Below, piece after piece: positions 11,896 through 63,605 of a stretch of 64,000 nt of DNA. Each line of letters begins with the position of its first letter. The first letter of the stretch is position 1. The DNA lies in contig QPMI01000525.1 of NCBI GenBank assembly GCA_004431415.1, positions 38,187-102,186 on the forward strand, read 5' to 3'. Both the position numbers and the translations under genes were made by a program. The notes beneath the pieces were generated by a model. That model saw only the letters and a program-made list of their open reading frames with translations. It did no database searches and was not told the DNA's origin. The stretch comes from Cyanophora paradoxa CCMP329 (Eukaryota; Plantae; Glaucophyta).

Positions 11896-14800
11896 ATGCG
11901 GACGGCGCTTGTGAGGCTGGCCCGGGGTGCGTGGCAGCCGCGCGCGGCGTTCATTGTCTGCTATCTGATCGTGTGGTCGCTCCCCTCGGCAGCGGCCGAG
12001 CCGAGATCAGTCGCTGGCTCGACGCGGCGACCCCGGGCGCGCGCGAATGCGGCCGGTGGAAAGAGGCCGTCTCCGAGGCGGCCTGCGCCCCCGCCGGATG
12101 CCGTGATCGTCGACGCCATTCGAGAGATCGCACCAGTGCGCACCGCCGCCTTCCCTCCTGCCGCAAGACCGAGCGGCGCGCAGAGCCAGAGCGATCGGCT
12201 GGAGTCCAAGCAGAAGGCTCACATCCGAGCGGCCCTGCAGGCCGAGCGGGCGCAGCTGAAAGCGCGCCCGGCCGACGCCGATGCGGTGCTCATCCGGGCG
12301 CGCCGGAGGCGGGGCGCGCGCGAGCCGGAGGAGATCCCGGAGCTCACGGGCAGGGAAGAACCGCTGGAGCCGCCGCCCGCCTCTGCGTCCCTCGACGACG
12401 TGCTCCTGTGGATGTTCAACCGCGGGCTGCCGCTCCCCCGCGGCCTCGCGCAGCGGCCCGAGCGCTCGGCGGTGCAGCACAGGTACCTCCACCAGCGCAA
12501 CGCGGCGGCCGCGGCGGCGATTGCGCGGCTGGCCGGCCTGGGCCGCGTCGACCTCGCGGAGCGCACGCTCGTCCTCCACATCGAGTGGCGGCTCCGGCCG
12601 CTCTTCCGCGTGCGGGGCGACCGGGAGCCGGCGCTCACCGCCGCGCCGTTCCACGCGTCTATGGAGGCTCACATGCGCGCGGGCGCGCCCGACAAGGCGC
12701 TGGAGGTGCACCGCCTCATGGTGCAGTACGGCGTTGCAGACCGGCCTCGGACGGTCGAGCTGGTGGCGCTTGCGCACGTGGAGGCGGGGGACGCGGAGGC
12801 AGCGATCCGGTTCGCGCGGCGCGCGGCAGACGCCGGCGTCCGACTGTCGCGCAACGGGCTGGCGAGGCTCGTGCGCGCGTGCGCGCGCTCGGGCGGCGGC
12901 CCCGAGCTCGTCGAGGCGGCCCTGGCGCTGGGCGGGGAGCCGGCGGCGCGGCACGCGCCGACGCTGATCGAGCGGATCGCGGCGGCTCGCTCCTCGGGCG
13001 AAATCGCGGACCTGGTCTCCGGCGTCCCCGGCGCCGACCGGCCCTCGGAGAACCTCGGCCGCGCCGTCGTCCGCGCCTACGGCCGCGCCGGCGACGTGGC
13101 GGCCGCCGCGCGCTACGCGCACCGCGCGGCGACGGACGCGGAGCGGGCGGGGCGGCCGCTGCCGCTGGGGGCCCACGCCGCACTCTACGACGAGTTCCTC
13201 CGCCTCTGCGCCGCCCGCTGCCTCCCCGCCGCCGCCGCCGGTGCCCTTGTAGAGCTCCGCAAACGCCACCTCCACCCCTCCAAGGAATCCTTCCGGTACC
13301 CCTCCCCCTCCCTCCCGCTTCGCCCCTCTCTTTCCCTGTACCCCCTTGCGCCGACCTCTTCCCCCAGGGCGCTCTTCCACATGGCCTCGGTGCTGTCGTC
13401 CCCCTCCGCCTCCTCCCCCTCCACCACCGCGGTGCCGTACCCCCCCCCCGCCCCCCCGCCCCCCCCCCCCCCCCCCCGAAACGTCTCCCGCCCGGATTCG
13501 AACCCCCTTTCCCGCGCAGTTCGCTGCGGGTCCCATCACCATCGAGTCCCTTTGGGTCGGGGCCGTCGCCGGTGAGTTCCAAGTCGGCCGTCCGGGGTAC
13601 GGGAATGGTTCTCTTGTCTGACTCCCGCCTTCCAGCCGGCGTCGCCCGCCGGCCCGACGTGTACCGGGCTGCCGTCCACGCCGCCAGCGCCGCGCGCGAC
13701 GTACCCGCCCTCCAGGTTCGCCCTACCCCCCCCCCCCCTCTTTCGTTTCTCTTTCGTCGGACTCGTGTTTCACGCTGGGCCGTTTCGCCGCAGCGGTTCC
13801 TTCGGGACCTCTCGCTCGACCCGGCGGGCCCGACGACGGGGGCGCACCCCTCGTCGCGCTGGGCCAGCGAGGGGGCCTCGATCTCGGCGGCGGGGCCCTC
13901 TGTGGCCTGGGAGGAGGGCGACCGGGCGCGCATCGTGGGCCGCATCGCCGCCGCCATGTGCCGGGCCCGGGACTTTAGGGCCGCCAAGCGTGCCATCGTC
14001 GGCGCCGGCCTCCAGGGCAACGAGCAGGTGATCCGTCTACCCCAGCTACTTTAACTTGAACTTTTAACCTAGCTACTTGAACTTCAACTTAACTTTTAAC
14101 CTAGCTACTTTAACTTGAACTTTTAACTAATTTTTAACCTAGCTACTTTAACTTTCACTTAACTTTTAAATCTAGCTACTTCCCGCTCGCTCTGAGCTTT
14201 GACTCTGCCAGGTGCTCGTGAGCCTGGTGAGGGGCCTGAACCGCGCCGAGGAGCTGGGCCTGGCCACCGAGGCCGTCGCGTACATGGCCGCCAACGGCGT
14301 AGCCCCCTCCAAGTCCGTCCCGCGTACCCCCCCCTCCACCAGTTCGAATTTGATCCGATTCGGAGCGCAGGTGCACGGCGGACGAGCTGCTGAGGCTCTG
14401 CGCACGGGCGCGCGAGGCGCGGCGGGACGGGCGGCGGGCCGACCACGTGCACCCCTCGAGCGAGCTGCGGCGGGCCGGGGTACAGGTCCCGAACGAGCCG
14501 GCGGACAAGCCGGCCGCCGGCTCGGACCCCGTCGGGCACGCGCTGTACACGCTGGAGGCGGCGGCGCGGCTGGGGGGCGACAGGGGCCGCCGCACGGCGG
14601 GGGACACTATCTCCTCGGCGGTCGTCGGCGCGGCGCTGAGGCGCGTGGGCGAGCTCATGGGCCTCGCCGACGACGCGGAGGCCGTCCGACGTCTGTTCGG
14701 CGGATCGGGGGGCGAGGCGGAGGAGGAGGGGGGGAAGGAGACGGGGGAAGGCGATGAGGGGAAGGGCCAGGGCGGAGGGGATGGCAAGGCGGCCTCGTAG
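11896..14800 (+). CDS. Pentatricopeptide-repeat (PPR)-like protein, probably organelle-targeted
   Basis: Arg/Ala-rich N-terminus; ~35-aa helical repeats such as PFHASMEAHMRAGAPDKALEVHRLMVQYGV, RTVELVALAHVEAGDAEAAIRFARRAADAGV and VLVSLVRGLNRAEELGLATEAVAYMAANGVAP. Confidence 0.65.
14044..14178. repeat. AT-rich intronic tandem repeat (unit ~CTACTTTAACTTGAACTTTTAACCTAG, about 4-5 degenerate copies)
   Basis: Directly visible in an intron of the PPR-like gene. Confidence 0.85.
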
Positions 14801-48465: not shown

Positions 48466-48748
48466 ACACATAGTAAAATGCGGAGTTTTAACCCTCGGCT
48501 TATCTTAATTGATTTTGTTGATATATCTCGTATATTCTATTTCAATCAATCGATAATCTGTGTATATCTTATCGAATATTCAATTATTTCGATTATTTTG
48601 TATTCTTTTCGATATTTTATCTTAAATTTCTCTTATTTTCCGATTAGTCTTACTGAGTCTATCGATAATCTGTATATATTTCCGAATAATATAACTGAAT
48701 CTCAATTAGATCTTGCCTCTGGTTAAAACTCCGCATTTTACTATGTGT
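48466..48748. repeat. 28-bp perfect inverted repeat at the element terminus (arms 48466-48493 and 48721-48748)
   Basis: ACACATAGTAAAATGCGGAGTTTTAACC ... GGTTAAAACTCCGCATTTTACTATGTGT, extending imperfectly inward; internal direct repeat ATCGATAATCTGT. Confidence 0.95.
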
Positions 48749-49000
48749 GATTGGTCTAAAAGTTAATTGATTTAATCGATATTATATTCATGTACTTTCT
48801 CGATTAAATTTAATTAAATTTAATTCATTTAATCGGAAATATATCGCTAAACTCGATTAAGATCCATAAAAGATTCATTTGTTAAATAAAACAAATCGAT
48901 CTCTTATTGAATTCAATCGTAATTATACATGAAATTGATATGTTATTATCATGTTTTAATGATTCTAAGGGGGGACCCTTAGGATTTTTGAAATAATTGG

Positions 49001-49461
49001 GTGTGACAGGTGTGACAGGTCTATCCCAAACTTTTGATAGTTCATTTTTATGTTATAGAAAAGTTTGGGATAGACCTGTCACACCTGTCACACAAACCAT
49101 ATTCAGTAAGGATCTCTTTTAATGTTAAAATTTCAGTGTTAGTTGGTGTAGTTGATTCACAAAATGCATCCTGTCACACCTGTCACACAAACCATATTCA
49201 GTAAGGATCTCTTTTATAATGAAAAACTCAGTAACAATAAGTAAGAAGTTTATCTATGTAATTCTACTTGAATAAACAAATGAAATAATCGAGTGTGACA
49301 GGTGTGACAGGTCCATCCCAAACTTTTGAGAGTTCATTTTTATGCTATAGAAAAGTTTGGGATAGACCTGTCACACCTGTCACACAAACCATATTCAGTA
49401 AGGACCTCATATATTGTGAAAATCTCAGTGTTAGTTGGTGTAGTTGATTCAAAAAATGCAT
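49001..49461. repeat. Two 35-bp-stem hairpins within ~292-bp direct repeats, built from GTGTGACAG iterons
   Basis: Arms 49001-49035/49059-49093 (perfect) and 49293-49327/49351-49385 (one mismatch), both with 23-nt loops; extra half copy at ~49170-49188. Confidence 0.95.
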
Positions 49462-49871: not shown

Positions 49872-50270
49872 TCAAAACGGGAATCTATCATGTTTATGTC
49901 TCTCAGTCTTCTCAAATGTTAAGAAATTCATTGTTTTATCGATCTCATCTGCTACTGATTGTGTTTTATGCTGAGCTTCTTTACCACAACTGAATATATC
50001 AATTGCTAACATGCCTTCATTGGAATAACAATGAGCTGTGCAATGGCTTTCATCTAATAGCAGAACCAATGCAAAACCAGGAGGTGATAGTTTGCCATCA
50101 AATATCTCACAATGCTTATGAACAATCCTAATACCTTGTCTCAATACTGCTTGTTCAAGGGTTCCCATAATCCAATTACCTAGGAAGCTAACATGCTCAT
50201 AACCTGTTGCTATAGCTGATTTAGCCTTGTAATCAAGCATAACATGAAAGCCTCTGTATTTAGTCTCCAT
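49872..50270 (-). CDS. speD: S-adenosylmethionine decarboxylase proenzyme homolog (short, prokaryotic-type, pyruvoyl-dependent)
   Basis: 132-aa intact ORF: PPGFALVLLLDESHCTAHCYSNEGMLAIDIFSCG, with the E-S-H autocleavage site and the D.F.CG motif. Confidence 0.88.
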   Translation of the reverse strand: METKYRGFHVMLDYKAKSAIATGYEHVSFLGNWIMGTLEQAVLRQGIRIVHKHCEIFDGKLSPPGFALVLLLDESHCTAHCYSNEGMLAIDIFSCGKEAQHKTQSVADEIDKTMNFLTFEKTERHKHDRFPF

Positions 50271-50586: not shown

Positions 50587-51420
50587 TTATGGAGCAGTAT
50601 CCTGTCCAAAAATGGGGAAATATCGATTTGTGCCATAATACTCAGCATAGGTATTCTGCCTTGCAATAAAATCGGTTCTCTCAGCATATAATACACACTT
50701 GTAGATACCAAACTTGGTGGCTCTCACCAGAAACTGATAGTCTTCCAAACCGAAATTGACTCCATGATAAGCAATACCAAAATTATCATATGGGGTGATC
50801 ACAACTGCAAAATTAGGAGTTCCACCCTCTACTTGACATACAGCATATACATCTGGTGGATATCCACAACTACCTTGTAGTGGTCACCAATTTCAACAAG
50901 AGAGTCTACTACTGCTGTTTGTTCATTTACAACAATGGGGAATATCTTTATAATGTATGGGGCATTCATGCTGGGGACATAGGTTCGAATTCTTGTGTTA
51001 GGATCAATGGGATTGGGTTGATCATTCACAAATAGAGGCGCTCCAACAGCCCCACCAACCCTAAGACCATCACCAATATAAGCTCCCCCGATTTGCAGTT
51101 AATAGCTCCAGACCTAGATTCAAAAGAATAAGTAGACAGAGGATCTCCATAGCTATCTGGGTCTCCATAATGAGCAGAAAAGTTTGCATTGGTAACAAGT
51201 AGCTTAGTTGTCTTAACTAATCCATTATTTTATCACATCTGAGTTCCTGCAATCTCAGTTTGTGGGTGGAACCAAAGGTGTTCATTGTAGGTTGGACCTC
51301 TGTGGATGGGAGACCCTCTACATCATCAAATGTAGCATGCTGCAGAACATGGTTTGCTGGGGCAGCTAATGATAGCTGTGGTGTTATAATTCGCTCTATT
51401 GGTGTGGGTGCCTCTGCCAT
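50587..51420 (-). CDS. Hypothetical viral protein A (frameshifted, ~275 aa), paralog of the neighbouring gene
   Basis: ORF pieces 51420-51217, 51029-50829 and 50802-50587 are collinear; N-terminal LQELRCDK..VKTTKLLVTNANF. Confidence 0.6.
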
Positions 51421-51443: not shown

Positions 51444-52288
51444 TTATGGGGTTGGGTCATCAATAATATCTGGCTCCATGTAAAACCCTGTAACTGAAAG
51501 AGTATCAGGAGTTACACCTCTAAGAGCTGATACAGCGGCTATATCTGTTCTCAAACCGATAAGAGTTATAGTATATAACCCAATATCTGTAACAAACAAG
51601 TCAAAGGTGAAATTATTATTATAAACACAGTAGCCATAACCGAAATGATTATATCCCTGAACATTGAAATAGTATTTATGACCTACTTGATTGTTGTTGG
51701 CTCTACAAAGGGAAAGCATTGCAGATGGAATCGCAAGACCTCTCAGTACTCTTTTGGTTCCTTCAATTAATTCCGAGTTTTCAAGAGTAACAGTATATCC
51801 AATGTAAAATTGAATTAATGGCTGCTGTGCGACAGGAGTATATAATCGAATTCGTTGGGGGTCTTCCACATTTTGCTCTAGAGTATCTGGGACATCATTA
51901 TACGAAATGGAGGATGAGAGTTGACCTGACACTCTGCAACCACCCCAATAAATGCTCCTCCTGATCTCACAGTAACAGCAGCAGTATTCTTGTCGAAATC
52001 TAGGGCTTTCAGGGCAACACTGTAAGCATCAGGACCTCCATTTGTAGGCTGGAAGAAGTTAGCATTGGTGACAAGAAGTCGAGTTGTTTTAACCACACCA
52101 GAATTCTTATCAGCTCTCAGCTCTTTAACTCGAATAATCGAATTCTTATCAAAGGAGTTACCATTGGAATTGGGTCTCTCTGTGGATTCTAAACCACGAA
52201 CCTCATCATTAACTTCATGCTGGCGAAAATGCATTGCAGGGGATCCAAGGGAATATATTGGAAGTTGAACTCGATTATATTCACCCAT
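51444..52288 (-). CDS. Hypothetical viral protein B (one frameshift near 51930, ~280 aa)
   Basis: Overlapping ORFs 52288-51878 and 51932-51444; VKELRADK..VKTTRLLVTNANF; upstream TAGTAAAAG motif. Confidence 0.65.
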
Positions 52289-52327
52289 GGCTTCTTTTAC
52301 TAAGAAGGAAAGAAAAATAAACTACCA

Positions 52328-52633
52328 TCAAGCCAAAGTGATTAAATTCGATCCAAGGGATTGGTAAACAGTTGAAAGAACTTGCAGGTTGGATGTCATT
52401 GCTTTAATGTTGTTATCACACTCATTGTATTTAGCAACAGGGTCACCATATGCAGCTTGAGCAAGGACATTAACCAAGAGGTTTTTATACTCATTTACAA
52501 CTGGTGAGAGCTTGTTAGTTTGCTGAATCGTTTTTTCAACTGTTTGTAATGCGTTTACAAGGGTGATTGTATCAAAAGAAAGTGCAACAGGCTCAGTAGA
52601 ATAGGTGGTTCCACCAAGAGGATAGGTCGCCAT
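52328..52633 (-). CDS. Hypothetical viral protein (101 aa, helical), abutting the fibre gene
   Basis: Intact ORF starting immediately after the fibre stop codon. Confidence 0.65.
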   Translation of the reverse strand: MATYPLGGTTYSTEPVALSFDTITLVNALQTVEKTIQQTNKLSPVVNEYKNLLVNVLAQAAYGDPVAKYNECDNNIKAMTSNLQVLSTVYQSLGSNLITLA

Positions 52634-55600
52634 TTATAATACTGTGATATTTTTAATTTGGTCTATTTGACTTTGGAGATTCTCACAGGTTTGTGTTAAA
52701 TCTTTGCATTTTTGGGATAACTCCTTCACTGCTTCAATGAGAACCGGAATTAAACCTGTGTATGCAAGGGTCAAATAATTTTCGTGATTTTTACCTACTA
52801 CTTCTGGTATGACTTTTTCGACATCTTGCGCAATCAAACCTAAGTTTACTTTCTGTTTTCCATCACCAATCTTTTTGTAACTCACACCCTGTAATTTCTC
52901 AATTGCTGAAAGGGCGCCGGTTATATTTTTAATGTCGGTTTTGTATCTTCTATCACTTCCTTGTGTAAGCCATCCCCAAAAGTAAACGTCACCATTATTA
53001 TAAAAAGCTTGCATTGTTATATCATTTCCTGCTCTAAAATGGATCATTTCGTAACCATAACCTTTAATGTATGTAGTTGATGATGAACCGAAATAAACTC
53101 TCCCATTACCTTCATCTGATGTTATCCAAGTTCCGGTTGCCCAAGTTGTGCGAGCATCTTTACTATATACATTATCCCAGCTGATCATACCATTTGCTGG
53201 TGAGGTTCTCCCTTTTTCTTTCGTCCATCCAACCATACCAATATAACATCTCCCTTTTCTTGCAACAAATCTAACATGTGAGAAATAATCACAAGCAAAA
53301 GAAGCCCACGCCAAACCATCGTGATAATCTGTGGTTCCATAATTTGAGACAGTCTGATAAGTATTAACTCGCATAATGTGGAACCATCTACCCGATCGAT
53401 AACCTCCAATATCGAAATATCGACAATTCGACCAACACAAATATTGGACATGACATGTTTGCATATTTGCTGGGACTTCAATTTGCGCCCAATCACCACT
53501 TGTCGAATCACCTTCAACAATACTATAAAATCCATCGACGGGATTAGAATAAGAAGCTGTCCAACCTGACACCCAAGATCCACTAAATGATAGACCACCA
53601 CTACCTGTTCCACTCCAAGTATCAAAACCTGTAATATTTCCAACTAAATTCGTTGTTAGTAGATTTGGCTTACTATAAATGTTATCCCAAGAAACATAAC
53701 CTGTGTGACCACCATAACTACTTCCTGTCCAAGTGCGAGTAAATCCAATGCCCATTATGTAAACTCTTCCTACCTTTGGAATAATACGAAGGCGAATAAA
53801 GCGATTTCCCAACATAATAGGGACATTTTGTAAACCATTGTGGTTTCCATCTGGTGCGCTTTCATATTGATGATAACTATTCACTCTTGCAATGAAAACC
53901 GCATTTCCTTGTCTATTAATTCCCCAAATCTCAAAGTAACGACAATTTACCCAAGGGAGATATAATAAGTGGGCTGTTCCCGTATATAAATCAGTGGGTA
54001 TTGTGTAATCAACCCATGAGCCGTTTACAACTGTGTCGCCACTCTCATTATTGTAAGCATACCCACCGTAATTGTAATAGGGTTCCCATGCTGTTCCACC
54101 TTCAAAACCCCAACCTCCTGCATAACCATGTGGCGAATTTCCTGCAACTGATGCATCATATTCTACACATCGAGGCATTGTTTTGTCGCCAAATTTATAG
54201 TTTGTAGTTGCATTTATTGAACCCCCATTAATAATTGTTCCACTTATAGTCGGAGCGGATACAGTATTATTCACCCAAAGGTTGCCGTTTTCATAAGATT
54301 TTAATAATGCTGCATCCCCTGAGTTTCTGAATTCGATGCAAACGCTGTCACTATTGGGTCTACCTCGAATATATGTAGTGCTGGCGTTTCCAAAATAAAA
54401 CCGCTCATAGTTGTCAGTTGATTTAAGCCATGTCTGGACAGCCCATGTTGCTGTTTGTGGGAGGTCTGCGGCTGTAAATAAAGCGGGACGACTGTAAATA
54501 TTATCCCAACTAATCAAACCATTCGCTGGTGCTGTTCTTCCTACTTCTTTTGTCCATCCAAGCATTCCAATGTGAATTCGTCCTTTCTTTGCAAAAATTC
54601 CAATATGAGAGAAATTCCCACAAAATACGGAAGTCCATAATAAACTCGAATGCCAATTTGTGTCGGCTGTGTTTTGAACATTTTGATACGTATTCACTCT
54701 CATAATATAATTCCAACGACCATTGCGGTATCCATAAATATCAAAATATCTTGAATTCGTCCAACATAAGTATTGTATGTGACAGGTTTCATTCCTGCTG
54801 GAACAACACACTGCATGTAGCCACTGCCACTTTCATCATCTGTCTGGTTGCAATAAAAACCCTCTACTGGGTTATCTGTTGTGGGTTTCCATGCTGTTGT
54901 CCAAGCCCAGCTGGGAATGCTACACCTGTGCTATTCCAACCACTTACAACATCAAACTCGGAATATTTGCCAACAGGATTGAAAGCAATATTATCGTAAT
55001 GCAATAATCCTGCATCATTATCAGTTGCTCTTTGTCGACTCCAACCAAAGACACCTGTAAGATAAATGCGACCTTTTCGCCCTTGAACATATATTTTACT
55101 GTAAAATTCGCAGTTTACTGAAGTAAATATTATAGCTGGGTATGTTCCATCTTGAACTGCAACATCCTGAAGTCCTTGATAGTTATTTATTCGTCTTAGG
55201 AAATGTTGATGTCCATTTACAGTTTGCCCGTAAATATCGAAATATCGACAAGTATGCCACAGTAAAAGTTGAATATAAAACGATTTCATACCTTCTGGAA
55301 CTGTCCAACGCATAAAACAACCATTACAATCTTCATCATTTTGTGGTATTGTATAACATCCTGTTTGTCCTGTTCTTTGTCCTGTCCAATTGACTGTCCA
55401 ATTATTTGCGCTTCTATCTGTTGATACTACATCTAACTGATCAAAATCATAACCTTTTGGAATTGTGGTTCCACCAATTTGTAGAGTGGTAGCATTCACA
55501 GTTCCATTGACAGTCCCACCTGTAAGAGGCAAATAGTTTGCAAGAGCTGTTGTTAACTCTGCATCTGTTGCATAACTGCTTAAATCTGCAGAGGTAAGAT

Positions 55601-58600
55601 AACCTTTATTGGTAAGGTAATCATCTGTGACCACTCCTGAAAGGGTTGTATTGTGTAAGTTTTTTGCTGCCATCCTCTGATTGACTTCTAAGGCGCCACC
55701 TGATGTTGTTTTAATCCAGGACATCTCACATTTACCATGATCATCTGTGGGTTGTCCTGCAACTGGAAGGTAGTTTACAACTTTCTCCCTTGTAAACACG
55801 ATTTTAGGTCTTGCTCCATCATATGGGTCTTGATCTGTTACATTAACTTGAATTGCTGCTGAAAAATTGGCTACTTGTCCTGTTTCTCCTGGGTGATAAT
55901 TCGTTACATAGATACTTGGGAAAGTATCATTAACTCCCACATTAAAATCGCCATCATAAACTCCATTAACAATTGGATCCCTGGGTAATCTTACTGCAAG
56001 AGTTCCCACCATTGGGGTTCCTGTTTGACCTGTAAAAGTCCCATTGAGACTAACATAATGATCATTCAAAAATAGCCTTTCAGGTGTATTACTGGATTGG
56101 TAAAGTGTAACTCCATTGAAAACATTTCCAATCGCATTCAACAGTGCAAATACTGGTTGTTGATCGATTTCACTCCAAGGGTGTCTGTGATTGCAGTTGG
56201 TGATCTGGGAATAATCATGACTGTGTGGATCAGGTGGAAAAGTTAATGGTGGATTTACGATTTGCTCCCATAAATGCCCATGGGAACTGGGAGGGAATGT
56301 TAATGGTGGATTTGTTATATGCTCCCATAAATGCTCATGTGCAAAATCTGTTATTTCATCTTTTGTGTGGGTGTGGTTGTCGATCCAACCTAAAACTACA
56401 TTGGATGTAGGATGATTTGGTAGATTTGCTGCAATATTCACAGTCAAATAGTCGACTTCTAGATTACTTCCGTAAATATTGCTTGCCCATAGATTACTGG
56501 TGTAAATGTTACTTGTATAAAGGTTACTGGTGAAAATGTTACTTGTGACTGTAAGGTTTGTGTCATTTTTGATCACAAAAAGAGAAAGAATGTTTGTTAA
56601 TTCACCTTCATCAATATATCCTTGCTCTTCTAAATAATCCTCTGTGACCACTCTCGAAATAGTCTCATTGTGAATATTCTTTGCAGCCATCCTCTGATTG
56701 GCTTCCAGAACCCACCATAGTTTGTTTTAATCCATGCAAGCTCTGCCCTTCCATAGTTATCATTTGCAGTTCCCACTATGGGAATATAGGAATATTTATC
56801 TCGACTGAAACTATCATTGGTCTTGATCCATCTAGACTGCTTACATCTGCTACATGAACCTGTATAGCAGAGTTGTAATTTTGGTAGGTTGCTGGGTCTG
56901 TTGGGACTCTGAATGTATCTGTGGGAATGTCAGCCTCCATGTAGCTTGACACAAAGATATTTGGTATGGTTGCTCCTGGTTCAGGTGGTGGATTATAAGA
57001 GCCTGGTAATGTCCTAATATGAAGTGGTCCTCTCATAGCTGAATTCGCAAGTGTCCCATTCACATGAACATAGTGGTGATTCAAAAAGATCCTTTCAGGG
57101 ACATTGCAAGTCTGGTAAAGAGAAACTCCCAGAGTAGCAAGAGGCTCAACTTTTGCAAATTCTGGTTGGTCATTGATCTCATCCCAGGTGTGTTCATGGT
57201 TGCTTGCTGCAAACTTATCTGGAATCCCATCAATATCACCCCAATCATGCCTGTGGTCTTCTGGTGGGTATTTCTGTGGTTTGCCTAAGATCTCATCCCA
57301 GTCATGATTGTGGTCCTCTGGAGGATATCTCGCTGGTTTATTGTTTATTTGCTCCCAGTCAGGGAAGATCTCGAAAACCTCAGGTTGCAAACCATCTGGT
57401 AACAGTTCCTCATGGGGGTCATGGGGTTGCTCATAGTCAACAGCTGGGGGATCATGACCATCTGCTAAATACTCCTCATGTGGTTCATAATTCTGCTCAT
57501 ACTCATACTCTTGTGGATCATGTCCATCTGCTAAATACTCCTCATGGGGTTCATAGTTCTGCTCATACTCATACTCTTGTGGGTCTAAGCCATCTGGTAA
57601 TATTTCCTCCTCATTGGGGTCATATTGATCATATTCATACTCTTGTGGGTCGAAACCATCTGGTAAATACTCTTCCTCATCTGGAACGAATTGATATTCA
57701 TCAAGCTCTAATATATCGACTTCAGGAGGTAAATACTGCTCATCTATTTGCTTTCTGGGTTCAATTATAGGTTTATTGCGAACTTGCTCCCAACTCACAA
57801 TATGCTGCCCAAAGGCTACATCTTCAGTTGCTGTGTATTCTCTTCCAGGCTGCTTCTTTGGTGTTAGATCGGGTGGTCCATTGGGAATGGAATAGGGAAT
57901 GGGACAGTAGGTCCATTGGGACCATAATGCTCAATGATTTCCCTTAGAGTTTTCTCACTAACAAGCTTCTCTCCATTTGCATACACATTGCTGCATGGAT
58001 ATTTCGCCATTGCCTGGTTCGAATTCCAAGGTCTTTCACATTGCTATACAAAGGCAAAGGTGCCTATCCATTTCGACTAAATCAGGATGCAAATGGATTG
58101 CTACTGGTTGACTGGGGCTACTGTTGATTGTAATTGATGGCTTTTTTGATGGACATCTTTTGGAGTAAAGAACCCAAAAGGCTCATTTCTTGCAAAGTCA
58201 TATGTAATATCCTTGGGGTAGACATCATTTGTGTAGGAGACCTGATTTGTATTGGCAATGGGACCCACTTGCAATACTTGGGGACCTCAGCTTTTGCAGT
58301 GCTGCCCTCATTGTAAATTCGCAAAGCTGTGTTCTGTTTGCCCTGCTCATCTTGAACATTGAAAATCAATCGACCACTATCGAACCTGGAAGGTATATCT
58401 GGGTGAGTGCCACTGGTTTTCAGTTTCCTAGGTCTCCTTCTGGTGGCTTTGATCTCTGCCACTTGGTTTGCTTTCACATTACCCAAACTAAAAGCAACAC
58501 TGACATCCTCTTTATCTGGATCGGTTTGATTCACAGATAAAGCATGCTCCCTTGATTGAGTCTTTGATGAATTATCAGAGCTGTGGTCAATTGAAACTGA

Positions 58601-58696
58601 ACCCTTTACTTTAATATTATCAAAGTTCACATGCTTGGTGCTGCTTGCATTATCATCTTGAATGGTTTCTAGATTGGGTGGGTAATTGAAGCTCAT
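52634..58696 (-). CDS. Giant modular fibre/spike protein with C-terminal peptidase S74 intramolecular chaperone (probably one ~2000-aa gene broken by frameshifts)
   Basis: C-terminus SDRRYKTDIKNI..GLIAQDVEKVIPEVV..LAYTGLIPVLIEAVKEL; HxHxWxxIxxxP repeats; four copies of a W..(C)RYF(D/E)I.G..R.N.Y module. The duplicated block WIKT..GG.LE.NQRMAAKN spans the 56776/56690 break, linking the ORFs. Confidence 0.8.
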
Positions 58697-58739
58697 GGCT
58701 TTTACTATATGGATTTATAAAATTCCTGATAAGTAAAAG
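58697..58739. promoter_or_regulatory. 43-bp divergent intergenic region with back-to-back (T/A)AGTAAAAG motifs
   Basis: TAGTAAAAG-CC-ATG on - and AAGTAAAAG-ATG on +; the same motif precedes the ATGs at 52288 and 49552. Confidence 0.7.
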
Positions 58740-60290
58740 ATGCCTCTCAAAGTAGTTCTCAGTTTGTCAGGGGAGGTGCAAGGGGCATTATCATAACCAG
58801 GCTGCTCAAAGAAATCGAAAATCGAACTGGCAGGAGAATAATCGATCTTGTGGATCTTGTGAGTGGAACTTCCACTGGTGGGATCATTGCTATTGGGTTA
58901 AACATCAGGCATCCTGATAAACCAGGTGAACCTAAACTGACAGCAAACGATTTACACAATATTTACCTAACTCAACTGCCCTTGATTTCGCAAATCCTCG
59001 AAATATCATTGAAAATGCCCTATTTAACACAAAGTATGATGTGGGACCCTTGGAGACTGCAATCAATTCAGTTACTGGTGAATCACTAATACAGGATTCC
59101 CTTAAGGACATTGTGATCACATCCTTTGATACTCAGAATATGAAACCAATATTTATCACAAATGACAACAATTACAACTTTATGCCTTGTAAGATTGCTG
59201 CTAGGGCTACTTCTGCTGCTCCTACATATTTCTCTCCTGTAAGCATTGTTGATTTCAATCGGGGAGTATATGTCTGTCTTATTGATGGTGCCATTTCGGG
59301 AAACAATAATCCCAGTGTGTGTGGTTACAGCCATGCAAAGAAGATTTACAGTGATGATGATGATATTATAGTAATAAGCATCTCTTGTGGTGAGGTAGAC
59401 CCACATTTAGAGTCTGATTATGTGGGTTATGCTTATGAGACTGTAAACAGCTGGGGTATTCTCTCATGGATTGCCTCAACAGATGGAAGCCCATTGATTA
59501 ACATGCTCATGGCTGCAAGTGAGCTTTCTGCCCTTGATAAAATGGAGGAGCTTTTACCCTACAACTATGATCAGGATTATGGGAGATACTATAGGTTATC
59601 AGTCCCTCTTCCAAATCATATAGTAAGCTCCCTGGATGACACATCTAAGATCCCAGACATGCTTGCATTCACTGAAACATACATTGCAGCAAACAATGAT
59701 ATGATCAATAAGCTTTGCAGCCTTCTAGTAGCAAACTATGAACTAAAGAACCCTTCAAAGGCTTACATTTCATCCACTCTCACTACATCACCTCCTTTGG
59801 ATGCCAATTGGTATCAGCTTGCAGATGATGCCTTTACTGCCTCATCCTCTGTGACAGGTAAAGAGCCTTTCATGGCTAGACTTCAGCATTTGGCTGGGAA
59901 GCTGGAGCCTATGCTCCTGAACAGATATGGGAAACCCCACTGAATACCTTCAAGTTGCTTTTCCATATACTTTTGAACTCTCCTCTGTGATTGCCTATGG
60001 ATCAGGGGACACCAATGCTTTATTAAGACTTTCAATGTGGCAACATCCACTGATGGGATCAACTGGTCTTTTATTCGATCAGATGGGCAAAACAAAATAT
60101 ATGTCTGTGAGAACATTAACAATGCTCACAACTCTGGTGATGTGGCTCTATTGAGTGGGTTCCTCTCAGCATCAAGGATGCTTTTTACATAGGTTATTCT
60201 CTGAGAATAAGATATATTCGCATTTATCCCCTTGTGTATGTGAATGCTCCCACAATGAGAGTTGACTTTACAGGTGCCTTTATTCGATAA
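58740..60290 (+). CDS. Patatin-like phospholipase fused to a C-terminal F5/8 type C (discoidin) domain (frameshifted)
   Basis: VLSLSGGGARGII (after restoring one G), SGTSTGG nucleophile elbow, ARATSAAPTYF, LIDGA. C-terminal FTASSS..EYLQV.F..STDGINW..RYIRIYP..TMRVDFTG. Confidence 0.88.
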
Positions 60291-61201
60291 ACTCCAACTG
60301 AAAAGAATTATCGATTCCATTCATATCAATCAGTTCACCAAAGTAATCTTTAAACTCCACAGTGAGTTCCCTTATCACCAGGTTTCTGTCATTGATTTGA
60401 ATAAATTCTGCATGTTCACCACTATGGTAAACATAGCCCCCTATATCTTTACTCAATTGCAATCTAAGGATAGCTCCCTGGTTTTGTGGTTGCGATTTTG
60501 GAATTATATTGTGTCTGCTGGCAAAGGGGGACAGCTCTTTAATATGCATGTACAGATACTGCTCAGCATTCATATCAGACATCTTCCTGCTGTCAAAATA
60601 ATATTGCAAGGGCTTAGAGGAGAGTCTGGGTCCTGAGAAGGTGATTCCCCATGCTGGGTGATCAGGTGTAATAGGTTTGCCATCATACTTTAAAAGGTTC
60701 TCAGGTCGATAGGGAGATCCACCAACAGGAGGAGTGCTATAATACCCAGTGGTGTATTCAGTAGAACTTACACCCAAAAGCTTTCCTATTCTCTGGTTGC
60801 TTGCAATAAACGAAACTCATGGTTACTGTAAAACTCCACTTTATAGGTTGTTGGTTGTAGAATATCTTGAACTCAAAAGCTACTGTTTGCCTGCAATAGT
60901 TTGGAAGCTTGAATAGTTCAGCCCATAATTATAAGGTGTGTGACCCAAAATGACCCTGATTGATGTAGCCACTGGGAAGGGATACACTTGTTGTGTGATC
61001 ACTTGGTTATATGAACCATCTTGGTAATTAAACTGAACTGTTAGATGATCAGTTCCACACTGTTATAGATACTGTTTGGAATCTCTGCATAGAGAACCCT
61101 ACATTCCTTGGTCTCTCTACTGGAGTGTGAGGGTGACCCTGTAAGAGTTTTCATTTGTCCTTGCTTCTATCCCTGCTATCAATATTAACGAGCCGGTTCA
61201 T
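60280..61201 (-). CDS. Minor capsid (penton) protein 1, single jelly-roll (frameshifted)
   Basis: MNRLVNIDSRDR...NSYRVTL at the N-terminus; YLYMHIKEL and IRELTVEFKDYFGELIDMNGIDNSFQLEF at the C-terminus, the PLV/NCLDV penton pattern. Confidence 0.8.
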
Positions 61202-61230
61202 TTTAATATATAAATATAGATAAAAGAAGA

Positions 61231-62223
61231 ATGCCTGTGGATTACATCGAGGTTAGCTCATTTAATACAATCTCTGGTGATGGTCCCACATCAAGCTTTG
61301 TGGCTAGACTCCCAGTAGTTATGAGAATGTGAGGGCTGTGAGACTGGTCTCAGCCGAATTTATAACAGTATCCCTATGGTGAGTGGTGAAACCAAAGCAG
61401 GAGATGTGACAGTTGACAATGCATTAGCATTTATTATTCTGAACAAACTCCTGGAGCTGGAAGCTCAGGAATTCCAACAGTTCGCCCAGCTGCTGACTAT
61501 GAACAATGGAAACAATTCATTATAAGTCGAACACCCCATCCAAAGCCACCAGCAACTGTGAATGTAATTAACTCTAAATCGAAGGCAGAAATCCCAACCA
61601 TCCATTCGCTGCAAATGGGATGAATCACTGAAACGAATTATATTCCACTCAGCAGTACCATTGTACTTGGCTTTCTCAGTAGCTGTGAACCCAAGCCAAC
61701 AAACAATCCAAAAGCTGTTGAGTTCGCTAGACTGCTGGGTCTTGATCCTGGAAGATATGGTAACTCCCAATCCAATCACAGGTCTATGATGCTCTCACTG
61801 ATGGAATCTTTACTGGTGGTCGCGTGAATGGCATTATATCTTCTTTTGAGCCTGAGAAGACCAGGGACAGTGTTTGTTTGTGAGAGTAAAGGAGCTGGGT
61901 GATCTGGTGCAATGTGGGGATGGTCTTCTGACTGGTTACTTCACAAAAAGTGGTCCCTGAAAAGACTATGGTGAGCATGTTGTTTACAATTCAACAGAAG
62001 CTCACCCACTTACAAATACTATAAAAAAGGTTGGATATCCACTTTCTCGGTTGATATGTAATGCTATAATGAACCAATTGATTTTGAGGGTCAACCTGTT
62101 CATCTTACCTTTGAAATTCGCTATGGTGATGAGCCAGCTGGGACCCAGTTTATGAATACTTCAAGATGCGAATGTCACAGCTTCACCTTCCTATCCAGTT
62201 ATTACAAACTTCGCATAAATTAA
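61231..62223 (+). CDS. Minor capsid (penton) protein 2 (heavily frameshifted)
   Basis: MPVDYIEVSS....GPTSSFVARLP..YENVRAVRLVSAE; C-terminal YNEPIDFEGQPVHLTFEI. Confidence 0.7.
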
Positions 62224-62266
62224 GGACATTGGAGATTTTTATGTTGCAGTATATAAAAGAGAATAA

Positions 62267-63605
62267 ATGGATATCACTTCCACTCTTCAAAGACTTCGCT
62301 GAAAGAAGCCTAACAACCCAGAAGAGGCGAAAGCCTTTTCCTGGATAACTCCTTATGCTTGGTCTCGAATCCAAATCTAAGCCAGTTCTAGTTGTTGTGA
62401 ATCCAGCAATACTTTTGAGAATAATGTTGGAAATCGCATTTCCTTCAAGCTACCTCGCTACAATTTCTGTGGAAAACTCGAACTTGCTTTCGACCTCCAG
62501 CCATCACGTTTGCTGGTGATACTGACCTAGTTCGCAATGGATACACTCGCCAGTTGGTGCTTTAGTTCAGCGACTTGAAATTACCTATGGATCTTACACC
62601 TACCATATTCCATCTGATTCCTTGCTCATTCCCCTGGTCTATTATTCGGAGGATCAACTAGCTAAAAGAAGCGATCAATGGGCATGGTTCATGGCATTCC
62701 TGCTCATGGAACCAACCGCTTGGTGGCTCATTCTTTGTTGAAATCCCTGTGCTTGGCTAAATCACTACTTCCCCTTGGTGCTTTACTGGTGAAATGGTGT
62801 TACTGTTTGGTTTAAGGATGCTGGAAGGGTTATGTTGAAACTTCCTATGTGGTCGCTCTCTCCCTGTTGTGTGGGACAGTTGCTGATAAGAAGAAGATGA
62901 TGGTCTTGTGATACTGCTAAGCTACACTTGCCCATGTTGGTCAAACATCACAACTTTCAGTCTTGGTGCACAACCCTGTCATTTCTATTACTTCTCCTCG
63001 CCTTTACATGCATGCTATTAATGTTTCTGATGAGCTTTTCGCTACTGTAATTGAAAAGTAAGACTACTGGCATGGCTATTCCCTCCCTTGATATTGGATT
63101 TGTAGATGCTAGTGCTTTCCCTGCCAAGGGCAATGCCCAACCCAATCGAATTAACCTCTCTCAAATCTCAGGTCTTGTATATGCTCTGCTTGTTTCAGTT
63201 CGTGATCATGAAACTGTTGACAAATCCAATGGCTCCCACAGTGTTCTTAAGACCTATGCCAACTCCAAAGACATCACATTCACAACTGAAATAAATGGTC
63301 AGCGACTTTTGCCACTGAGCCAATTTCCTACTCAAAGTGCTGAGCTAATTGCTGATGCCTTCAAATGCTCTAACATGGATAAGGTTGCTGATCGCTATGT
63401 CCTTTCAGGACTCCCATTCTGCCTTGATGGAGAAAAGGCAATTCGAAATATTGCCCAGTCTGGTTTTGTCGATTTAACAAATTCCTCCTCTTCATTCCTC
63501 ACCCTCTACATGCCTTCAGATAAGGTAATCGATGTTAATGTTCGCGCTCTCATGCATTCGTTTATAATTTTGGACAAGGATGGATTACGTCGTATAAATC
63601 TTTAG
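62267..63605 (+). CDS. Major capsid protein, double jelly-roll, PLV-type (frameshifted, ~445 aa)
   Basis: GNRISFKLPR...LELAFDL, VQRLEITYG, LLPLGA.TGEM.VTVWF, NRINLSQISGLVYALLVSVR, FTTEING, and DVNVRALMHSFIIL. Size and position between penton and ATPase genes fit. Confidence 0.72.

Follow-up and report, generated by a model that had tools for sequence, protein, structure and literature searches.

The window analysed here is a 64,000-nucleotide (nt) stretch of Cyanophora paradoxa CCMP329 DNA (GenBank assembly GCA_004431415.1, contig QPMI01000525.1, positions 38,187 to 102,186 of the forward strand), and the gene in question is a single open reading frame (ORF) of 2,023 codons, found in what is likely an endogenous Polinton-like virus (PLV). 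An initial annotation had described it as a phage-like fibre of about 2000 residues, and all of the features listed there are present, on the minus strand and in the order given: an N-terminal region, acidic repeats, HxH repeats in a duplicated block, short SN(I/L)(Y/F) repeats, four copies of a larger module, two YFG units, and a C-terminal S74 chaperone domain with its Ser-Lys pair intact (Table 1). The modules come in two pairs related by a tandem duplication, and belong to a mobile domain family that has no name. On balance, the reading favored here is that the protein is a trimeric attachment fibre, whose four modules, predicted to be jelly rolls similar to those of the carbohydrate-binding module (CBM) families CBM35 and CBM6, bind cell-surface sugars.

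The module is 165 residues long. The four copies are pairwise 26–54% identical (z 20–79, 200 shuffles), with modules 2 and 4 at the upper end of this range and modules 1 and 3 at the lower. No family in Pfam, NCBIfam, or PHROG covers it, in searches with the window pieces, 17 alignment members, and 44 of 94 relatives (75 members for NCBIfam), in keeping with the earlier suggestion that it may be an unnamed domain. Relatives were collected as 13 proteins, 87 cluster representatives, and seven loci; in a set of 100 proteins (94 from databases, five locus ORFs, and the fibre itself, some being near-duplicates) a profile found 118 module copies in 99. The modules had been called novel, which holds in that they lack a family name, but they are by no means unique to the Cyanophora fibre gene. 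Most of these proteins (91) have one copy and six have two, while the Cyanophora fibre has four and one protein of 5,217 residues has eleven. Three tryptophans are highly conserved: of 115 copies, 106 retain Trp20, 102 retain Trp28, and 107 retain Trp73 (~90%). Domains found with the module in relatives include S74 (in eight of the 44 scanned), collagen, PAN, ricin-B, F5/8, C1q, FG-GAP, phage tail repeat, and collar. Taken together, these observations identify a real, mobile domain family without a family name.

Carriers of the module are diverse. Five loci (L001–L005), all IMG/VR contigs and one labelled GVMAG, are among the closest module relatives, and have gene neighborhoods that were judged by reading to be giant-virus-like. 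Other carriers look like phage tail or secreted bacterial proteins, judging from their domains and sequence. The eleven-copy protein (P0014) has a signal-peptide-like start, is bacterial-type by appearance, and forms a clade of its own. A 9-residue pattern gave no module relative in GTDB genomes, and none was found among 50,697 phage records or, with single-sequence patterns, in viral contigs. No account of the module turned up in literature word searches, which is weak evidence of absence. Two further leads were set aside. Quick trees placed module 3 apart from modules 1, 2, and 4, but an approximately unbiased (AU) test on 32 of 110 rows does not reject a single clade for all four (p 0.315), so no separate origin is claimed for it. 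A match of the module profile to NECAP1 (E 0.006, 40 residues) is a short two-strand one, and is not among the fold matches listed.

An AlphaFold2 model of module 3, built from 17 sequences, is all-beta (pLDDT 80.9, pTM 0.81). Foldseek, which had been proposed as a check on the module, returned CBM6, CBM29, MAM, Eph, gingipain adhesin, and Cry domain III at TM scores of 0.45–0.60, with no close viral family in this type of comparison. The top 50 VIA-align matches range from Z 11.7 to 10.4, the best having a root-mean-square deviation (rmsd) of 2.1 Å over 114 aligned residues; CBM35-bearing enzymes, free CBM35, CBM6, and Eph domains are tied at Z 10.5–11.7, and CBM35-bearing entries make up most of the top ten rows. 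Matches from both programs include accessory domains of glycoside hydrolases. The module is accordingly predicted to be a jelly roll of the galactose-binding-domain-like type, a fold class that can be regarded as secure for a model. Like CBM35 and CBM6 it has a predicted beta-sandwich (rmsd 2.1–4.5 Å over 113–144 residues) and conserved tryptophans; unlike them it is some 30–40 residues longer and has no Pfam match. In the model, it resembles the CBM35/CBM6 fold without being a member of either family by sequence.

From this resemblance the module likely binds cell-surface sugars, but several results weigh against such an interpretation. Scores within about 1 Z unit of the CBMs are also reached by Eph ligand-binding, MAM, meprin, and gingipain adhesin domains; as protein-binding domains of this fold are among the ties, the fold does not identify the ligand, and we infer glycan binding rather than read it from the structure. 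Identity to CBMs is just 5–15%, no CBM family is matched by any of the modules, and ESM leads to CE2_N and CBM35_2 are below 0.9. A CBM35 sequence match (2vzp in the PDB, E 0.09) was out of register and was not counted. The initial annotation's proposal of a multivalent, probably glycan-binding fibre thus agrees with the CBM-like fold, while its binding component is as conditional as before. It is possible, although clearly less probable than sugar binding, that the protein is a virion fibre with modules that recognize a protein receptor or are structural knobs of the shaft. The ties with Eph ligand-binding, MAM, and cleaved-adhesin domains and the lack of a detectable CBM signature are what this alternative would predict, and every module ends in a W-D-N-I..P motif like that of the shaft repeats, which fits a structural insert. 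On the other hand, the three tryptophans are nearly invariant, CBM35-bearing entries dominate the best structural matches, and in relatives the module adjoins known lectin domains and occurs in arrays of up to eleven, all of which argue for sugar binding.

Outside the modules, the HxH repeats and the S74 domain are shared with phage tail fibres, as had been noted initially. The eight HxH repeats, in groups of three and five, match minor tail proteins in 298 phage records, at ~60% identity over 49 residues in the best rows, and tail PHROGs (E down to 2.3e-9), but had no Pfam match at E 0.1 to PF12789 (Phage tail repeat-like). The C-terminal domain matches PF13884 (E 1.3e-16, 61.1 bits compared to a cut-off of 22). 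Its Ser-x4-Lys pair, Ser1917 and Lys1922, aligns with that of a phage gp37 chaperone of solved structure (6f45, E 1.1e-5), as well as with the dyad positions of MYRF, whose Ser-Lys dyad is described in the available part of PMC8326128. By this test the product is an S74 protein, and its designation as a fibre with an S74 chaperone is supported at the sequence level.

Much of the remainder of the protein is also repetitive, although self-BLAST missed the internal repeats, which were found by pairwise alignment. A unit of about 430 residues (linker, module, module, YFG unit; z 100) is duplicated in tandem to make up the C-terminal half, and the two YFG units are identical at 23 of 58 positions (z 17). 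The duplicated block, put at about 150 residues in the initial annotation, is indeed duplicated but is longer, about 260 residues including its HxH repeats, with 108 of 263 columns identical (41%, z 85). For its region of about 170 residues, no relative was found in proteins of 1,065–3,040 residues (a weak search), in viral contigs, or in the collected proteins, and an AlphaFold2 model from a two-row alignment gave no fold (pLDDT 29). No transmembrane segment was seen in the protein. It counts against the fibre interpretation that homologues of the N-terminal 1,040 residues are confined to the HxH repeats.

If the protein functions like its phage counterparts, a tentative scheme can be drawn. 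By analogy with phage fibres and MYRF, the S74 domain would bring three chains together and then cut itself off before Ser1917. In the shaft, the HxH repeats may bind metal through six-histidine sites on its three-fold axis, as is known for trimeric fibres (PMC6116203, in part). The N-terminal end would presumably anchor the fibre at the capsid penton, leaving four modules on each of three chains, or up to twelve weak sites, at the distal half to hold the virion on the host surface, where the neighboring patatin-discoidin protein might help entry. Avidity or specificity could then change as sibling copies duplicate or lose modules. Trimer formation, location in the virion, and glycan binding are all inferred here by analogy. 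A variant of this scheme is that the fibre attaches not to the host cell but to a helper giant virus, at its glycosylated surface, and that the PLV enters with it. Giant-virus contigs are among the closest module relatives, some PLVs depend on giant viruses (10.1101/2022.07.28.501842; 10.1101/2025.10.09.676808; both in part), and Sputnik enters attached to giant-virus fibres (PMC12220804, in part). This is nonetheless considered unlikely: the portions of 10.1101/2022.07.28.501842 and PMC12220804 available infer independent host attachment for fibre-bearing PLVs, giant viruses with the same module would more simply use it on host cells, and no helper virus is known for the Cyanophora element.

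As assembled, the gene lies in ten pieces, four main ORFs of 192–725 residues plus small ones, and nine frame changes are needed to join them, all shifting the same way. Short-read contigs have one extra base at each of the nine breaks (at least seven from one contig alignment, and the other two from a second). With an N at these positions there are 2,023 codons and no internal stops, a result given by none of 2,000 random placements. Eight of the nine adjoin a homopolymer of three or more, compared to a background of 37% of all positions, and the breaks sit inside domains. Near 54786, the extra base is found in four of four runs, in contigs otherwise identical to the window over ~200 nt. The one-way shifts, the homopolymers, and the open frame fit deletion errors of a long-read assembly, and the short-read contigs support the single-ORF status, for which polishing had been proposed as a check. 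Against this it must be said that a multi-copy family supplied the contigs with the extra bases, some of which may derive from siblings, and that no single short-read contig spans the gene. That the breaks are real, making this copy a decayed pseudogene or a series of separate genes, would agree with the ORFs displayed in the window itself, with the many copies from which the contigs stem, and with a published caution that multi-copy elements can give a false consensus (PMC10120064, in part), but is very improbable in view of the direction, context, and in-domain position of the breaks, the lack of nonsense codons, the contigs near 54786, and the frameshifts in neighboring genes of the element.

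The element appears to be one of many related copies, since 19 of the 24 sequencing runs listed, all from one organism, contain at least half of the region's words, and contigs fall into several identity bands. In one run (X1), 927 contigs were aligned to the region, with 318, 244, and 365 in the 99+, 95–99, and 90–95% bands, respectively. In four of four runs, contigs join a module-1-type end directly to the sequence following module 2, for a net loss of 164 codons (counting the two assembly gaps) with the frame kept. Other contigs, also in four of four runs, skip a net 1,329 nt, or 443 codons, corresponding to one whole unit and again in frame. Such shortened joints point, from the sequence, to sibling copies with fewer modules, although the 443-codon joint could be a diverged copy placed on the wrong paralogue. 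Contigs sum to a greater depth over the N-terminal half than over the modules, but depth is not copy number and was not used to estimate it. A run from a second organism (X20) has low-depth contigs that match the gene's N-terminal half at 90–99% (52300–59000 aligned), and a related element may exist there as well.

The fibre gene lies in an AT-rich element that starts at about 48466 within GC-rich, host-like (eukaryote-like) DNA. G+C content (GC) is 0.55–0.75 as far as about 48465, then about 0.40 through the end of the window. The GC contrast and terminal repeat structure expected of an inserted PLV are both present, as seen for the left end, and these and such a gene set are known from endogenous protist PLVs (PMC10120064; PMC12220804; 10.1101/2025.10.09.676808; all in part). 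The patatin and F5/8-like stretches are probably one fusion gene, as in rhizarian and glaucophyte PLVs. The capsid-like piece has ESM scores of 0.97–0.98 to Capsid_NCLDV, MCP_V20_C, and Preplasmiviricota clusters.

The capsid assignment is an ESM score with a low recognition value (1729), and the gene has no match by sequence in Pfam, PHROG, or the PDB. The two genes before it, putatively encoding pentons from their motifs, have no Pfam, PHROG, or other library match, and the ORF after it, presumably an A32-like ATPase from its motifs, has no library match either. In viral contigs, the capsid, penton, and patatin pieces had no close relatives, and the window does not extend to the right end of the element or to any integrase or polymerase gene. 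The element is most likely an endogenous PLV, on evidence that is good but incomplete. The initial annotation was silent on this context, as it was on the frequency of S74 fibres in PLVs and on the wide spread of the mobile module. Its view that the fibre takes up a large share of a small viral genome needs correction, as the element is inserted in host-like DNA rather than being a free genome; the gene accounts for at most 39% of it (6,063 nt out of 15,535 nt or more), an upper bound because the element runs off the window.

Several other features were observed in the window. Following the 47-nt inverted repeat at the left end there is a 181-nt direct repeat, its copies 93% identical, 292 nt apart, and with 35-nt perfect inverted arms; the whole (48466–49461) is a possible origin or terminal structure. 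The S-adenosylmethionine decarboxylase gene belongs to the polyamine pathway, and was not met in the available parts of the published PLV descriptions compared here. Two small paralogous genes downstream of the fibre (51029–51420 and 51878–52288, minus strand; alignment score 199 over ~115 residues) have no family match. In the host-like flank, a Pfam scan gave no match in 110 of 111 segments; there is a weak pentatricopeptide-repeat match (PF17177, E 0.0027) at 11896–13572 on the plus strand. A 26-kb part of this flank (16000–42000) has lower GC (~0.56) and no long ORF, and possibly represents decayed repeats or another insertion.

Table 1. Features of the element and its fibre gene, in window coordinates.
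Position	Strand	Feature	Basis or remark
48466..48748	.	Left end of element	Local GC drop from 0.7 to 0.2 and 47-nt inverted repeat
49872..50270	-	S-adenosylmethionine decarboxylase gene	PF02675, E 3.9e-11
52634..58696	-	Fibre gene, one 2,023-residue ORF with nine single-base gaps read as X	Short-read contigs, frame test
near 58279, 58141, 58055, 57993, 57885, 56807, 56710, 54905, 54786		Breaks in fibre gene	
57733..58696	-	N-terminal region, residues 1–323	No family match
57364..57732	-	Acidic repeats, 22-residue (66-nt) period	33% D+E over 145 residues
56613..57363	-	Block copy 1: three HxHxW..I repeats and ~170-residue region	No homologue of ~170-residue region found
56457..56546	-	SN(I/L)(Y/F) repeats, five residues each	
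55596..56378	-	Block copy 2: five HxH repeats and ~170-residue region	
54975..55451	-	Module 1	
54485..54965	-	Module 2	Includes two of the assembly gaps
54275..54448	-	YFG unit 1	
53666..54163	-	Module 3	Modelled as jelly-roll beta-sandwich
53159..53635	-	Module 4	54% identical to module 2
52982..53146	-	YFG unit 2	Within stretch matched by phage tail-fibre PHROGs
52637..52957	-	Peptidase S74 chaperone (Ser1917, Lys1922) and C-terminal tail	
58733..60287	+	Patatin-like phospholipase, then frameshifted F5/8 (discoidin)-like stretch	Patatin E 1.8e-7; F5/8 weak, E 0.027
60283..62220	- (60283–61170), + (about 61330–62150)	Two penton-like genes	C-terminal motif
62250..63605	+	Major capsid protein-like gene, frameshifted	ESM feature scores
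63670..64000	+	Start of putative A32-like packaging ATPase	Walker A and B motifs visible

Comparison with known systems is limited here to the parts of the cited sources that were available. Most PLVs in PMC12220804 encode long fibre-like proteins, S74 ends modular proteins of up to 3.9 k residues, laminin-G domains occur in arrays of up to seven, and fusions of patatin with discoidin are also described. The Cyanophora protein is likewise large and modular, with a lectin-like domain array, phage-tail-like repeats, and a single terminal S74, and has the patatin-discoidin neighbor of the rhizarian and glaucophyte PLVs, so it would be expected to work as a known kind of PLV fibre; its architecture may already be drawn in Supplementary Fig. 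S6 of that paper. The array itself is different, as it does not consist of laminin G_3, collagen, BppL_N, H-lectin, adenovirus fibre, or any other Pfam family. The Ltf protein of PLV Gezel-14T / PgVV (10.1101/2022.07.28.501842) is also a long PLV product with phage-fibre-like repeats, encoded by the longest ORF and found in virions; the same source reports a fibre-like protein and a lipase in purified PLV particles. In contrast to the Cyanophora fibre, Ltf is built of T4 gp36-like repeats, and the available text neither contains the term S74 nor describes a jelly-roll array. Phage tail fibres (T4 gp37, the R-pyocin fibre, 6f45) share the HxH repeats and the S74 Ser-x4-Lys pair, but not the eukaryotic virus host, and the module was absent from the phage records searched. 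Finally, S74, collagen, and F5/8 are enriched in giant-virus islands (PMC13620141), and the module has relatives in giant-virus surface proteins of this sort, which combine collagen, S74, and lectin-like domains. Unlike the Cyanophora fibre, these relatives mostly have a single module and often an N-terminal hydrophobic segment, which the fibre lacks.

Large S74-ended PLV fibres with lectin-like arrays were thus already known, at least from the available part of PMC12220804, and the fibre architecture is not in itself surprising. What is new is the 165-residue module without a family name, a compact, foldable domain with some 115 copies and clear conserved residues. A more speculative extension, which we regard as doubtful, is that it represents a new glycan-binding family of giant viruses, PLVs, phages, and bacteria, and that the PLV copies of one host form a fibre library, varying in module number and sequence, that would target different sugars of the host or of helper giant viruses on reactivation. 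How PLVs and giant viruses recognize protist cells is largely unknown. If glycan binding proves true, the module would define a new family of carbohydrate-binding domains, and would be a candidate for a receptor determinant that PLVs and giant viruses share.

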